Notes under the pieces: model-generated
Databases searched by the model: none
What the model saw: the letters and a program-made list of their open reading frames with translations, nothing else
What the model was told of the DNA's origin: nothing
Translations under genes and position numbers: made by a program
Shown here: positions 42,404 through 46,998 of the stretch, one piece after another
How the letters are laid out: every line of letters begins with the position of its first letter
Numbering within the stretch: position 1 is the stretch's first letter
DNA from: an uncultured Gammaproteobacteria bacterium
GTDB lineage: Bacteria > Patescibacteriota > Microgenomatia > Levybacterales > UBA12049
Direction: 5' to 3'
Assembly: GCA_964490105.1 (NCBI GenBank)
Contig: CAZAZU010000003.1
Location: 245 to 64,244, forward strand
Length of the DNA: 64,000 nucleotides

Positions 42404-42432
42404 TTGACACCCCACTGTTAGCGGCATATGAT
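42404..42432 (+). promoter_or_regulatory. Sigma-70-type promoter of the nrdR-nrdJ operon
   Basis: TTGACA at 42404-42409, 17-bp spacer, TATGAT at 42427-42432. Confidence 0.55.
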
Positions 42433-42439
42433 CGATCTT

Positions 42440-42457
42440 GGCACTAGATTTAGTGTC
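42440..42457 (+). promoter_or_regulatory. Candidate NrdR box (operator)
   Basis: Inverted repeat CACTA-GATT-TAGTG resembles the NrdR-box palindrome (acaCwAtATaTwGtgt). About 10 bp downstream of the -10 element. Confidence 0.45.
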
Positions 42458-42492
42458 TGAACTTTAAGAATTTGCCCGAAGAAAAATAAGCT

Positions 42493-42942
42493 ATGAAATG
42501 TCCATATTGCGGTTCCCGCGAAACAGAAGTAGTAGAAACCAGAGACAGTGAAGATCTTGAGACAATAAGAAGAAGACGAAATTGTGTTAAGTGCGAGAAG
42601 AGATTCACGACTTATGAAAGAGTAGAGAATGTTAATCTGGTAGTTATTAAAAAAGATGGACGACGAGAACAGTTTAATAGAGATAAACTAAGAAACGGAA
42701 TTTCTAGATCCTGCGAAAAGACTACGGTATCAGTTGAAGACATTGAGAAGATAATAGTAGAAGTAGAAAGAGAATTAAGAGGAGCAGACTCGGTAGAAGT
42801 AGAAAGTAAAAAAATAGGGCAAATGGTGGCTGGAAGACTAAAGAAATTAGATAAAATTGCATATATAAGATTTTCGAGTGTATTCAAAAGATTTGTAGAC
42901 ATAGAAGACTTTGAAAAAGAAGTCAAAAAATTAATAAATTAA
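42493..42942 (+). CDS. nrdR: Transcriptional repressor NrdR
   Basis: MKCPYCGSRETEVVETRDSED...RRRRNCVKCEKRFTTYERVE zinc ribbon plus ATP-cone. Confidence 0.9.
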   Translation: MKCPYCGSRETEVVETRDSEDLETIRRRRNCVKCEKRFTTYERVENVNLVVIKKDGRREQFNRDKLRNGISRSCEKTTVSVEDIEKIIVEVERELRGADSVEVESKKIGQMVAGRLKKLDKIAYIRFSSVFKRFVDIEDFEKEVKKLIN

Positions 42943-42945
42943 ATT

Positions 42946-45357: not shown

Positions 45358-45390
45358 TTTGTAAAGCAAGAGCTAATAGTTTATAGTTAT

Positions 45391-45530
45391 TTTCAATAAG
45401 GAAAGGGTAAGTGAGGCGTAAATCCTCCACAGTGCCGCTACCGTAAAGTCCCGATTTAATCGGGATAAAGTCGGAAAACCACCTTATGTAGATTCTCGAG
45501 CAAGATTTTTTGGCGAACTTCTCGAGATCC
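45391..45530 (+). promoter_or_regulatory. Candidate cobalamin (AdoCbl) riboswitch
   Basis: AAGGAAAGGGTAAGTGAGGCGTAAATCC...CCACAGTGCCGC...AAAGTCGGAAAACCACC carries GGGAA/AATCC and a B12-box-like AGTC.GGA.ACC. Followed by the CTCGAG...CTCGAG hairpin and RBS GAGGAG. Downstream genes are B12-related. Confidence 0.45.
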
Positions 45531-45555
45531 TTACAGGATAACGAGGAGTTTTTTT

Positions 45556-45963
45556 ATGGCAAAGAAATTAAAAATTATTTTAGGAATCTTTCTACTTCTA
45601 TTAGTTTCGTTTTTAATTTTATTTTTTAAATTTTATCAAGATGAAATGGAATGGTATAGCCGTAATGGTTTGGTCCCGGTTAAGAATTCTACGATTACAT
45701 CTACTGATATGCCGGTTAAGACAGAAACACATGTTTCATATTACGGAGCCGAAGGGAAGAATGCTCTAGAATTATTGGGGGAATATGAGCAATTTGAACA
45801 AGCATCCTCAGGATTGGTTATTTCTATAAATGGAAGAAGAGCTGAGGAAAAAAATAGAGAGTTTTGGGCTTTTTATATCAATGGGAAAACAGCAACTTTA
45901 GGGCCTGAAGATTACGTTACAAAGAAAGGAGATTTGATTGAATGGAAAATAGAAGAATATTAA
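45556..45963 (+). CDS. DUF4430-like surface protein; candidate cobalamin-binding component
   Basis: N-terminal TM/signal. C-terminus YINGKTATLGPEDYVTKKGDLIEWKIEEY resembles the DUF4430 ending (...dGD.i.w.y). Confidence 0.45.
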   Translation: MAKKLKIILGIFLLLLVSFLILFFKFYQDEMEWYSRNGLVPVKNSTITSTDMPVKTETHVSYYGAEGKNALELLGEYEQFEQASSGLVISINGRRAEEKNREFWAFYINGKTATLGPEDYVTKKGDLIEWKIEEY

Positions 45964-46493
45964 ATTTTGAAAAATTACTTTTACCTTTAATAATCATTGT
46001 ATTTGGAGCAACTTTAAGGCTAATCCCGCACCCTGCAAATGTAGCGCCAATTGCTGCGATAGCTATTTTTGGAGGTGTATATCTTAATAAAAAATATGCT
46101 TTGGTTTTGCCGATTTTGGCTATGATTGTTTCAGATATTTTTTTGGGATTTAGTGTAAGTACGCCGCTTGTATATGCAAGCTTTCTTATTTCAGGGGTAA
46201 TTGGTTTATGGTTAAAAAATCACAAACATTTACCTTTAGTAATAGGCGCAACACTAGCTTCATCGATAATCTTTTTTCTGTTAACAAATTTTAATTTTTG
46301 GTACGTGACATCTTTATATCCAAAGACATTCGATGGAATGATTCAGGCATATTTTATGGCGTTGCCATTTTTCAGGAACACAGTAATCGGAGATTTAATT
46401 TACGTAGGTTTGTTTTTTGCAAGCTTTGAAGTGATATTAAAATTATCAAAGGAGTTCTATGGCAGGACCAATTTATACAAAAACAGGGGATAA
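45942..46493 (+). CDS. Small polytopic membrane protein; candidate substrate-capture component for the corrinoid
   Basis: 183 aa, about 5 TM helices. Overlaps both neighbours inside the riboswitch-controlled unit. Confidence 0.35.
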   Translation: MENRRILNFEKLLLPLIIIVFGATLRLIPHPANVAPIAAIAIFGGVYLNKKYALVLPILAMIVSDIFLGFSVSTPLVYASFLISGVIGLWLKNHKHLPLVIGATLASSIIFFLLTNFNFWYVTSLYPKTFDGMIQAYFMALPFFRNTVIGDLIYVGLFFASFEVILKLSKEFYGRTNLYKNRG

Positions 46494-46998
46494 GGGAAAA
46501 ACCTCATTATTTGATGGTAAGAGAGTTTTAAAATCAGATAAAAAAGTTGAGACTTACGGCACGATTGATGAGTTGAACTCTGCGATTGGTGTAGCTTCAG
46601 CTTTTATTAAGATAGCCTCAGTAAATAAGGAGTTAGAGGAAATTCAAAATGATCTTTTAGAAATCGGTTCGTCGCTGGCTGTTTCTTCTACATTACCAGC
46701 TCCGCAGATTGCAAATCGTCCTAAAGAGTTTGAAGTTTTAATTGATAAATTGACTAAAGAAATGCCACCTCTTAGTCAATTTATTTTGCCGGGCGGTGGA
46801 AAGGGCGGATCTCTTATTCATGTTGCACGTACGATAGCTAGGAGGGCTGAAAGACGTATCGTAGATTTAAATAGAACTGAAGAGATAGACAATACTATTA
46901 TTGTTTATTTAAACCGTTTATCAGATTTATTGTTTACCATTGCCAGATTTGTAAATTACAAAGAAAAGAAAAAAGAAAAAATCTGGAGGAAAAAATGA
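46459..46998 (+). CDS. PduO-type ATP:cob(I)alamin adenosyltransferase
   Basis: IYTKTGDKGKTSLFDGKRVLKSDKKVETYGTIDELNSAIG matches the PduO/MMAB N-terminal consensus (IYTRTGD.G.TSL..G.RV.K...R..AYG..DELNS). Confidence 0.75.
   Translation: MAGPIYTKTGDKGKTSLFDGKRVLKSDKKVETYGTIDELNSAIGVASAFIKIASVNKELEEIQNDLLEIGSSLAVSSTLPAPQIANRPKEFEVLIDKLTKEMPPLSQFILPGGGKGGSLIHVARTIARRAERRIVDLNRTEEIDNTIIVYLNRLSDLLFTIARFVNYKEKKKEKIWRKK

Follow-up and report, generated by a model that had tools for sequence, protein, structure and literature searches.

A predicted class II cobalamin riboswitch and its candidate B12 salvage operon beside a class II ribonucleotide reductase unit of the Candidate Phyla Radiation

Bacteria of the Candidate Phyla Radiation (CPR, Patescibacteria) have minimal genomes and are thought to rely on their neighbours for most cofactors. 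In the class II cobalamin riboswitches the regulatory contact is a kissing loop between L5 and L13, with L13 carried in a stem-loop and at least one nucleotide left unpaired (PMC5028336; also PMC7367189). The sites of the regulator NrdR comprise a pair of 16-bp boxes, each partially palindromic, with a linker of 15-16 bp between them (PMC13584703; also PMC9110341). DUF4430 is the C-terminal domain of transcobalamins (PMC4350170), the transporter BtuM has an invariant cobalt-ligating cysteine, Cys80, and the proteins of B12 uptake are still unidentified in many bacteria (PMC6072759). Here we describe a stretch of contig CAZAZU010000003.1, 64,000 nt long and referred to below as the window, in which parts of these kinds lie side by side. 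Two adjacent units, an NrdR-controlled nrdR-nrdJ pair and a riboswitch-led four-gene B12 salvage operon, appear to supply deoxynucleoside triphosphates (dNTPs) through a B12-dependent enzyme, a reading to which we give a probability of about 0.8. NrdR with its boxes, the class II ribonucleotide reductase (RNR), the class II cobalamin riboswitch and PduO are parts of a known kind. New or little described are a lineage-specific riboswitch variant with a relay-type expression platform, two coexisting aptamer subtypes which sometimes stand in tandem, the strong regulatory evidence for the DUF4430 and DUF6580 proteins as a B12 capture and uptake pair, and the presence of an uncharacterised family, orf463, in the same regulon.

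The gene content of the window fits the CPR: tmRNA and SmpB, tRNA clusters, penicillin-binding proteins, FtsH, and pilins like those of type IV secretion systems (T4SS) with a TraG-type ATPase. The nearest related loci come from metagenome-assembled genomes labelled Levybacteria/Levyibacteriota, Paceibacterota, Berkelbacteria or 'Patescibacteria group'. For comparison, 32 loci with DUF6580 relatives were retrieved, making 33 with the window, and ten loci of the orf463 family were added later (L033-L038 and L040-L043; loci are referred to by such numbers throughout). The gene order nrdR-nrdJ-(DUF4430)-DUF6580-pduO is kept across the loci with DUF6580 relatives. Pfam scans were made on 58 window proteins, including every non-overlapping open reading frame (ORF) longer than about 185 aa except a phosphoglycerate-kinase-like ORF at 39942-40976. 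The features of the two units are collected in Table 1.

When the whole window was compared with Rfam at the gathering thresholds there was no match to the cobalamin clan, only tmRNA and tRNAs. A permissive scan of 45200-45700 returned RF01689 (AdoCbl-II) over 45396-45487, with 33.0 bits and an E-value of 5.5e-6. Orthologous leaders align with that of the window and score 39.4-53.4 bits against the same family, above its gathering score. A regular expression written for the core of the aptamer proved too narrow and matched the window copy only, and a covariance model of our own was used instead. It was seeded with ten relatives, the window, L001 and L008b being left out (MAFFT had misaligned L001, which bears an insertion). 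With this model the window and the 32 loci yielded 30 copies, the window copy scoring 48.5 bits with an E-value of about 1e-12, and eight further copies came from the ten orf463-family loci, ie from all eight which have upstream DNA. Over 28 distinct copies and 17 base-pairs, 90.5% of the cells are paired, compared with 68.4% in shuffles and 30-46% when the partners are slid. Compensatory double changes were seen in 110 cells, against 38.6 in shuffles, and 12 of the 17 pairs have them. The second pair of P5 flips from G-C to C-G in L037 and L038 with the loop UGCCG retained, which argues for a P5 of 2 bp with an L5 of 5 nt. The minimum free energy (MFE) fold of the window aptamer as a single sequence recovers P1, P4 and P6 (z = -2.2). 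Judged by its sequence, then, the leader (45396-45555) is a real riboswitch for cobalamin, belonging to the compact class II (RF01689) and not to RF00174. The initial annotation had placed a candidate adenosylcobalamin (AdoCbl) riboswitch here; the riboswitch stands, the family has to be changed from RF00174 to RF01689, and AdoCbl is only suggested as its ligand. The check which that annotation had put forward, a scan of 45380-45550 with RF00174, would, if used alone at the gathering threshold, have led to the wrongful rejection of a real riboswitch.

A P13 hairpin follows 26 of the copies. In its stem all three pairs are kept in every copy, with U-A, C-G, U-G and G-C as the variants. The window L13, CGAGCA, is complementary to L5, UGCCG, over 5 bp with a bulged A. 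Cognate L5 and L13 pair in all five positions in 21 of the 26 copies; the Berkelbacteria-type copies, in which L5 is UCCCG and L13 is CGGUCGA, are likewise 5/5 paired. The kissing loop is proposed for the window leader mainly by likeness to the solved class II structures, and the pairing is supportive of it, not decisive. The 5' strand of P13 and L13 can alternatively pair with a downstream CUCGAGA, giving an antiterminator of -10.4 to -13.5 kcal/mol (RNAfold, nascent transcript), and an alternative fold of this type is the MFE structure in L001, L002, L006, L008b and L034. The competing terminator hairpin (CUUCUCG:CGAGGAG) has an MFE of -18.7 kcal/mol and a z of -2.3. It was missed by a simple terminator scan, its loop being above the limit of the scan, and was found with RNAfold; equivalents made of a hairpin and a U-run are present in L004, L005, L007, L008, L010, L035, L037 and L038. 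The two folds are mutually exclusive and near iso-energetic, and the MFE structure alternates between them among the relatives, as would be expected for a switch.

The leader is predicted to be an OFF switch. With cobalamin bound, the L5-L13 kissing loop would lock P13 and make its 5' strand unavailable for the antiterminator. CUUCUCG would then pair with CGAGGAG, the terminator so formed would bury the Shine-Dalgarno (SD) sequence, and the operon would be off. With no ligand, the weak 3-bp P13 would melt into the 7-bp antiterminator and the operon would be on.

The aptamers fall into two subtypes. Copies directly 5' of orf463-like genes have GAUCCCC or GAACCCC in J6/3 and UGGGUGAAG on the 5' side, and the copies before DUF4430, DUF6580 or pduO have GAAAAC in J6/3. 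In L008, two riboswitches at 4187-4251 and 4329-4408, each with its own P13 and terminator, precede an orf463 homologue, DUF6580 and pduO; the first has GAAAAC, and the second has GAUCCCC and a P6 hairpin. This split may reflect a different ligand form or affinity.

The window aptamer has the architecture of Cbl-IIb, with AAA opposite A in J1/3 and a P6 hairpin at 45450-45464. Cbl-IIb is characterised by a short mismatched or paired J1/3 and a short P6 hairpin extension, and has been reported to bind AdoCbl (PMC7367189), so the architecture suggests AdoCbl as the form sensed. Besides, AdoCbl is the operon's end product, and serves the sole B12 enzyme seen as its cofactor. Both points stand against the rival view that the riboswitch senses hydroxocobalamin (HOCbl) or methylcobalamin (MeCbl), as a class IIa element like env8, and responds to imported cobalamin before it is adenosylated. 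That view is unlikely in our estimation, but has a good deal behind it. Among the Rfam families the compact class II fits best, and its structural prototype, env8, binds HOCbl (PMC5028336). Many relatives have a P6 with a simple loop only, which is IIa-like (PMC7367189). The selectivity of class II is a spectrum, tuned by small peripheral changes (PMC6158498). Lastly, two aptamer subtypes in one genome, in tandem in L008, would be sensible if they sensed different forms.

Downstream of the leader, the genes for DUF4430, DUF6580, PduO and orf463 overlap by 22, 35 and 4 nt, which makes them one translationally coupled unit. The riboswitch-led corrinoid salvage operon of the initial annotation is supported, with orf463 extending it past 46998; its DUF4430 and PduO genes both score above the family cut-offs, and what it had called a membrane protein is indeed one, now refined to a DUF6580 protein like the S-components of energy-coupling factor (ECF) transporters. 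In many loci the riboswitch is followed first by DUF4430. The series riboswitch, DUF4430, DUF6580 is found in about 20 loci of several CPR classes, and often continues to pduO and an orf463-like gene. On its domain and its membrane anchor, the DUF4430 protein is a candidate extracellular corrinoid binder; a PDB search with the single sequence returned transmembrane-segment noise only. Several relatives encode, under the riboswitch, an alpha-toroid (Prenyltrans/SQHop_cyclase-like) as well as DUF4430, as separate proteins in L002, L008, L009 and L012 and fused in L018 (605 aa). In the Berkelbacteria-type loci a thioredoxin gene follows DUF6580, at the place held by pduO and orf463 in the Levybacteria-type loci. 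TonB-dependent receptors follow the riboswitch in Omnitrophota and Ignavibacteriales loci: L016:3416-6468, from Ignavibacteriales, has the riboswitch, a BtuB-like TonB-dependent receptor and DUF6580 in one operon, and in the Omnitrophota loci (L027, L031 and L032, listed beside L016) riboswitch and receptor lie just downstream of DUF6580. In the pathway we propose, the membrane-anchored DUF4430 protein would bind corrinoid outside the cell, the DUF6580 protein would carry it across the membrane, and PduO would adenosylate it for NrdJ. The weakest step is the last, in which orf463 might act alongside PduO in the handling of corrinoid, say in its reduction or hand-over.

The orf463 protein has no Pfam or NCBIfam match, and a Pfam scan of 20 members gave only sporadic matches to zinc ribbons. 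Those 20 homologues were found by a word-indexed search, and a profile re-search of the same database added none; an exhaustive HMMER profile search recovered 498 cluster representatives at E<1e-3, 229 of them at E<1e-30. A metagenome locus scan gave two loci, and contig look-ups with the exact proteins supplied the others. The motifs GRDxRRxHGNxxDxxREDAE, SPPG...YxHNFYD and RYSS are conserved in the family, as are Cys403-Gly404, invariant and set in a loop rich in glycine, and a CxxC...CxxC ribbon at the C-terminus. In the AlphaFold (AF2) model the core at 117-410 has a predicted confidence (pLDDT) of about 90, and residues 1-116 are of low confidence or disordered. The core has no credible fold match in the PDB (TMq <= 0.16), and a PDB profile search returned eL37-type zinc ribbons only. 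The long forms of the family have an N-terminal extension (46995-47342 in the window), with a hydrophobic helix at about residues 24-43 after basic residues, which is absent from the short homologues and could be a membrane tether.

A riboswitch lies upstream of the orf463 family in 15 of the 15 loci with enough upstream DNA. It reaches the gene through the operon in the window, L001, L004, L006 and L010, and through pduO in L033, L034, L037, L038, L040 and L041; it stands directly before the orf463-like gene in L003, L007 and L035/36, and in L008 the gene comes after the tandem riboswitches. The presence of the riboswitch in every informative locus places the family in the B12 regulon. The overlap between the pduO stop and the orf463 start is kept in most loci, and our best guess, made with low confidence, is that orf463 is a partner of PduO in reduction or hand-over.

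Genes repressed by B12 classically include B12-independent isozymes. It might therefore be supposed that orf463 handles no corrinoid, and belongs instead to a B12-sparing bypass (deoxynucleotide or DNA salvage, together with the ORF and ATPase downstream), or that its position is merely synteny inherited within a clade. We regard this as improbable, though it has support. At 48448-51179 the window has a 122-aa ORF of no family and then a 786-aa membrane-anchored ATPase resembling TrwB/TraG/DUF87 (DUF8128 in the relatives). An ORF of 120-240 aa and a DUF8128/DUF87/TraG-like ATPase of about 790 aa likewise follow orf463 in L003, L007, L035, L037 and a JGI contig, and L038 and L040 have the same gene order, the large downstream product being unannotated there. 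No terminator is visible between orf463 and the 122-aa ORF (48387-48447), and the riboswitch transcript might extend into that ORF and the ATPase; at about 48430 there may be an extended -10 (TGTGATAAT). In L035, pduO is outside the riboswitch and orf463 is under it, which fits a gene needed only in B12 scarcity. On the other side, the orf463 of L008 is apart from the downstream neighbours of pduO, lying between the tandem riboswitches and DUF6580-pduO; the start-stop overlap with pduO is conserved; and the predicted fold is neither an RNR barrel nor a known nucleotide-salvage enzyme. A role beside PduO is kept as the tentative assignment of orf463.

The literature searched made no mention of the DUF6580 family under that name. 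In the databases, one member is labelled 'putative transport protein' (NCBI) and one homologue a riboflavin transporter (JGI). An AF2 model built from 50 homologues had a pLDDT of 86. When it was compared with the PDB by Foldseek, the top match was BtuM with hydroxocobalamin (probability 1.0, TM score 0.55/0.57, E 0.11), and further matches were FolT, PanT, ThiT and the S chain of 4HUQ (TM score 0.48-0.61). As modelled, the protein has the six-helix fold of an ECF S-component. The DUF6580 profile had a sole match in the PDB, 6FNP chain A, at an E-value of 0.0018 over helices 1-3, with a motif LR...PNVxP common to both; 6FNP is an entry for ECF-CbrT (PMC5997447). The model and the genomic context make the protein a candidate corrinoid transporter. 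The window protein contains no cysteine, and there is none among the invariant columns of the 50 homologues; membership of the BtuM family was therefore rejected in spite of the fold match. A histidine, His30, is invariant in the 50 homologues, in a loop RLxPHPxNVxP, and on the sequence is a candidate ligand in place of the cysteine.

The alternative that DUF6580 imports some other substrate (a lower-ligand base, another vitamin, or cobalt), with DUF4430 as a general surface protein, we consider quite improbable. The S-component fold is common to many vitamin transporters, and FolT, PanT and ThiT nearly equal BtuM as matches; one homologue carries the riboflavin label; and the matches to B12 transporters are all weak. 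Set against this, DUF6580 lies downstream of the cobalamin riboswitch in 20 of the 33 loci, lies beside BtuB-like TonB receptors in diderms, and adjoins pduO and binders of the transcobalamin type. There are no genes nearby for nucleotide-loop assembly or corrin synthesis which could make use of a precursor, and B12 transporters provide both the best fold match and the sole sequence match in the PDB. Corrinoid uptake is retained as the candidate function of DUF6580.

The first unit, nrdR-nrdJ, is the one in which dNTP synthesis would be controlled. Both genes score above the curated cut-offs, as the initial annotation had led us to expect, and nrdJ begins 3 nt past nrdR. Against the class II model TIGR02504 the nrdJ product scores 584.6 bits, compared with 357.7 bits against the class I alpha model TIGR02506, and its C-terminal tail carries CxxC...CxxC. 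By sequence it is a class II RNR, and its use of adenosylcobalamin is predicted. The nrdJ homologue of L002:59-3697 gives two separate matches, to residues 6-293 and 282-803, with about 1.2 kb between them, which suggests an intein or other insertion. The promoter given by the initial annotation was found as described; it is of the sigma-70 type, matches at 11 of 12 positions and is the top promoter-like site of the region in a promoter scan. Its layout, TTGAC(A/G)...TA(A/T)(G/T)AT, is kept in L001, L003, L004, L006, L008 and L012. The NrdR-box-like palindrome seen after the -10 is confirmed too: CACTAGATTTAGTG is the sole match without mismatch to CACTA-N4-TAGTG in the 64 kb, the other 14 matches all having two mismatches, a level at which about 17.6 would be expected by chance. 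This box 2 holds the same position in L001, L003, L004, L006, L008, L012 and L038.

When the regions upstream of nrdR in eight relatives were aligned, a second box was apparent between the -35 and -10, in addition to the one after the -10, and the single palindrome is thereby refined to a tandem pair. Box 1 is degenerate in the window; better versions are seen in L004 (CAATATATTTAGTG), L008 (CGCTATGTATAGTG) and L012 (CAGTACCGGTAGTG). In the window the two boxes start 32 bp apart, ie there is a 16-bp linker between 16-bp boxes, and in a position-specific count the spacing from start to start is 31-32 bp in the window, L004, L008, L012 and L038. The NrdR site is predicted to be a canonical tandem pair overlapping the nrdR-nrdJ promoter. 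From the established mechanism of NrdR, transcription would start from this strong sigma-70-type promoter, and NrdR tetramers loaded with dATP/ATP would bind both of the boxes which overlap it and block RNA polymerase, so that plentiful dNTPs would shut off the class II reductase along with its own repressor.

Some further observations concern the DNA 5' of this unit. An element TGAGGCTAGAAAAACGACTGA...TTTTGATCTAG at 42358-42393, 10-45 bp upstream of the -35, is kept in L003, L006, L008, L010 and L012; it may be an UP element, a further operator, or the 3' end of the DUF5667 gene unit which lies upstream. At 41008-42241 there are a (d)CMP-kinase-like gene, which is below the TIGR02173 cut-off and has a weak dNK match, and a gene for a DUF5667 secreted protein. 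The pair holds the same position in L001, L003, L006, L008 and L010, which puts a nucleotide-kinase gene beside the RNR unit.

The statement of the initial annotation that the only RNR seen is AdoCbl-dependent was borne out, since the 58 window proteins contain class II NrdJ and no other RNR subunit. The Pfam scans of the same proteins found no NrdB-like gene, no cob or cbi gene and no other B12-dependent enzyme. A histidine phosphatase at 25179-25742 was considered as CobC and rejected: it scores 100 against TIGR03162 (cobC), for which the cut-off is 163, and passes the cut-off of a phosphoglycerate-mutase subfamily. Dependence on scavenged corrinoids for dNTP synthesis is plausible; the window is consistent with it, 64 kb being too short for proof.

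Table 1. Positions of the features discussed. Positions with an L number are in the locus of that number, all others in the window; cut-offs are in bits.
Feature	Position	Strand	Description
Sigma-70-type promoter of nrdR-nrdJ	42404-42432	+	TTGACA 42404-42409, 17-nt spacer, TATGAT 42427-42432
NrdR box 1 (predicted)	42410-42423	.	Degenerate core CCCCACTGTTAGCG, 7/10 core positions; between -35 and -10
NrdR box 2 (predicted)	42442-42455	.	CACTAGATTTAGTG, perfect palindrome just 3' of the -10
nrdR	42493-42942	+	TIGR00244 187 bits (cut-off 124.65); PF22811 and PF03477; Zn ribbon and ATP-cone
nrdJ, class II RNR	42946-45357	+	TIGR02504 NrdJ_Z 584.6 bits (cut-off 399.95); PF02867, PF00317, PF12637 TSCPD
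Possible own promoter of leader	45359-45387	+	TTGTAA-17-TATAGT, 9/12 match; would start transcription close to P1
Class II cobalamin riboswitch aptamer	45396-45487	+	P1 45396-45401/45482-45487; P4 hairpin 45412-45428
Aptamer, further parts		+	P5/L5 45431-45439 (L5 UGCCG); P6 45441-45474 with inserted hairpin 45450-45464; J6/3 GAAAAC
P13/L13 regulatory hairpin	45494-45505	+	UCU-CGAGCA-AGA, six nt past P1
Antiterminator (predicted)	45494-45527	+	UCUCGAG 45494-45500 (P13 5' strand and L13) pairs with CUCGAGA 45521-45527
Intrinsic terminator/SD sequestrator (predicted)	45518-45555	+	5' arm CUUCUCGAG 45518-45526; inner hairpin 45527-45539
Terminator, 3' side		+	3' arm CGAGGAG 45542-45548 (contains SD GGAG); U7 45549-45555; ATG at 45556
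DUF4430 protein	45556-45963	+	PF14478 43.5 bits (cut-off 23.8); N-terminal hydrophobic membrane anchor
DUF6580 membrane protein	45942-46493	+	PF20221 161 bits; overlaps DUF4430 by 22 nt
PduO-type ATP:cob(I)alamin adenosyltransferase	46459-46998	+	TIGR00636 198.5 bits (cut-off 108.45), residues 6-177/179; PF01923 192 bits
orf463 (463 aa)	46995-48386	+	ATG overlaps pduO stop; uncharacterised family
GAUCCCC/GAACCCC subtype copies	L003:7176-7240, L005:2469-2533, L007:4851-4911, L008:4329-4408, L035:2220-2284		
Alpha-toroid/DUF4430 loci	L002:3848-5975; L008, L009 (minus strand); L012:7193-9732 (-); L018:278-2095		Secreted or anchored
Thioredoxin genes	L024:6482-6799, L029:6428-6748; equivalents in L015, L020, L022, L025		

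Several points weigh against the reading of the two units as a B12-fed supply of dNTPs. The score of the window aptamer, 33.0 bits, is below the RF01689 gathering score of 36.5, and RF00174 is not the best model; the shortfall against RF01689 arises because a hairpin of 24 nt is inserted in P6 ([24] in the alignment). A separate promoter for the leader scores no better than chance in this AT-rich region; nrdJ has no terminator 3' of the gene, so read-through from nrdJ into the leader is possible. Only two main combinations of L5 and L13 occur, amounting to about one evolutionary event, and the control with swapped partners also pairs 5/5, for which reason the between-clade 'covariation' of L5 and L13 was downgraded as proof of the kissing loop. 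The ligand form, AdoCbl as opposed to HOCbl or MeCbl, is not fixed by the sequence. DUF6580 lacks the cysteine which defines BtuM, and no EcfA/A'/T energising module was found in the window (by the Pfam scans) or in the fetched loci. Finally, orf463 is without a recognisable fold relative, and in most loci a small ORF and a DUF8128/TraG-like ATPase come after it, which are possible functional partners instead of the operon genes. That the leader is no riboswitch at all, but the terminator region of nrdJ with a chance Rfam match, would agree with the window copy being below the gathering score and silent at the default threshold, and is effectively refuted by the E-value from our own model, the relatives above the gathering score, the compensatory changes in every helix, the copies in all eight orf463-family loci with upstream DNA, and the finding that copies elsewhere in the genomes always precede B12-related genes.

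A bolder interpretation can be offered tentatively, at somewhat less than even odds. DUF4430 and DUF6580 would form an ECF-free, binder-assisted route of B12 uptake, in which an anchored receptor like the beta domain of transcobalamin feeds a solitary, cysteine-free and histidine-bearing S-component; and the orf463 family, of about 500 clusters, would be an unrecognised cobalamin-processing enzyme or escort acting with PduO (for example the missing cob(II)alamin reductase, or a factor for hand-over to NrdJ) in cells where RNR is the only B12 client. More radically, orf463 and the TraG-like ATPase could be a B12-repressed bypass for deoxynucleotide salvage when NrdJ lacks its cofactor.

With a unit for sensing, capture, import and activation encoded beside a B12-dependent enzyme of DNA-precursor synthesis, the locus gives handles on the acquisition of B12 in the CPR. 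There are three: the class II riboswitch variant with its three-part expression platform, the candidate transporter DUF6580 with its surface binder, and the orphan family marked by the riboswitch as B12-related. The strong regulatory linkage of DUF6580 leaves this new family directly open to complementation tests.

Elsewhere in the window there is a T4SS-like cluster at 5748-13535 (-), with a TraG P-loop ATPase, a PrgI-family protein and three T4SS-pilin-domain proteins, and a winged-helix regulator at 13572-14879. A cluster of six tRNA genes lies at 23170-25154 (-), and a tmRNA (83.8 bits) adjoins smpB at 27348-28230 (-). A further tRNA lies at 51185-51256, with a tyrosine recombinase/integrase after it at 51307-52167.

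Compared with the described class II riboswitches (RF01689, AdoCbl-II or 'AdoCbl-variant'; env8HyCbl, PDB 4FRN; Cbl-IIa and Cbl-IIb), the window element has the same compact four-way junction of P3-P6, with no P2 arm and no long P6 extension, a T-loop-like L4 (GUGAAAU/GUAAAU), a conserved L5, and a P13 placed a few nucleotides after P1, the loop of which complements L5, one nucleotide being bulged. The linker J1/13 measures about 6 nt, close to the 7 nt of wild-type env8 (PMC5028336). Unlike that of env8, the window L13 holds no ribosome-binding site; P13 instead overlaps an antiterminator which competes with a terminator containing the SD sequence. The window aptamer further differs from the family in that J1/3 is cut to a bulge or mismatch, J6/3 is GAAAAC instead of GAGcGCC, and P6 carries the 24-nt hairpin, and among the relatives there is a second subtype, GAUCCCC, dedicated to orf463.

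Of the transporters, BtuM, a solitary B12 transporter of S-component type from Proteobacteria (PDB 6FFV/8OVV), is the best structural match to DUF6580. Both have six helices in the S-component fold and a length of about 180 aa, and both are linked to B12 by genomic context, diderm DUF6580 pairing with a BtuB-like receptor as in the prediction of BtuM. There is no detectable similarity of sequence between them, however, and DUF6580 is cysteine-free, so there can be no cobalt ligation or decyanation of the Cys80 type, and it has an extracellular DUF4430 protein as its partner. CbrT, the B12-specific S-component of ECF-CbrT (PDB 6FNP), shares fold class and size with DUF6580 and is its sole profile match in the PDB, but the similarity is marginal and CbrT needs an EcfAA'T module. 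As in transcobalamin and intrinsic factor, the DUF4430 domain is of the beta-domain type, and relatives encode an alpha-toroid with DUF4430 under the same riboswitch, whereas in the window just the small domain of beta type is encoded, on a membrane anchor. The NrdR part resembles the known systems in its protein, with Zn ribbon and ATP-cone, and in the two boxes with a 16-bp linker on the promoter of an RNR operon which contains nrdR; it differs in the degenerate box 1 (7/10 of the core) and in that the RNR regulated is of class II only. At the level of translation pduO is coupled to orf463, a gene without counterpart in described B12 systems, whereas PduO and NrdJ themselves are of canonical families, the cofactor-activating enzyme being encoded, as in the known arrangement, beside its client.

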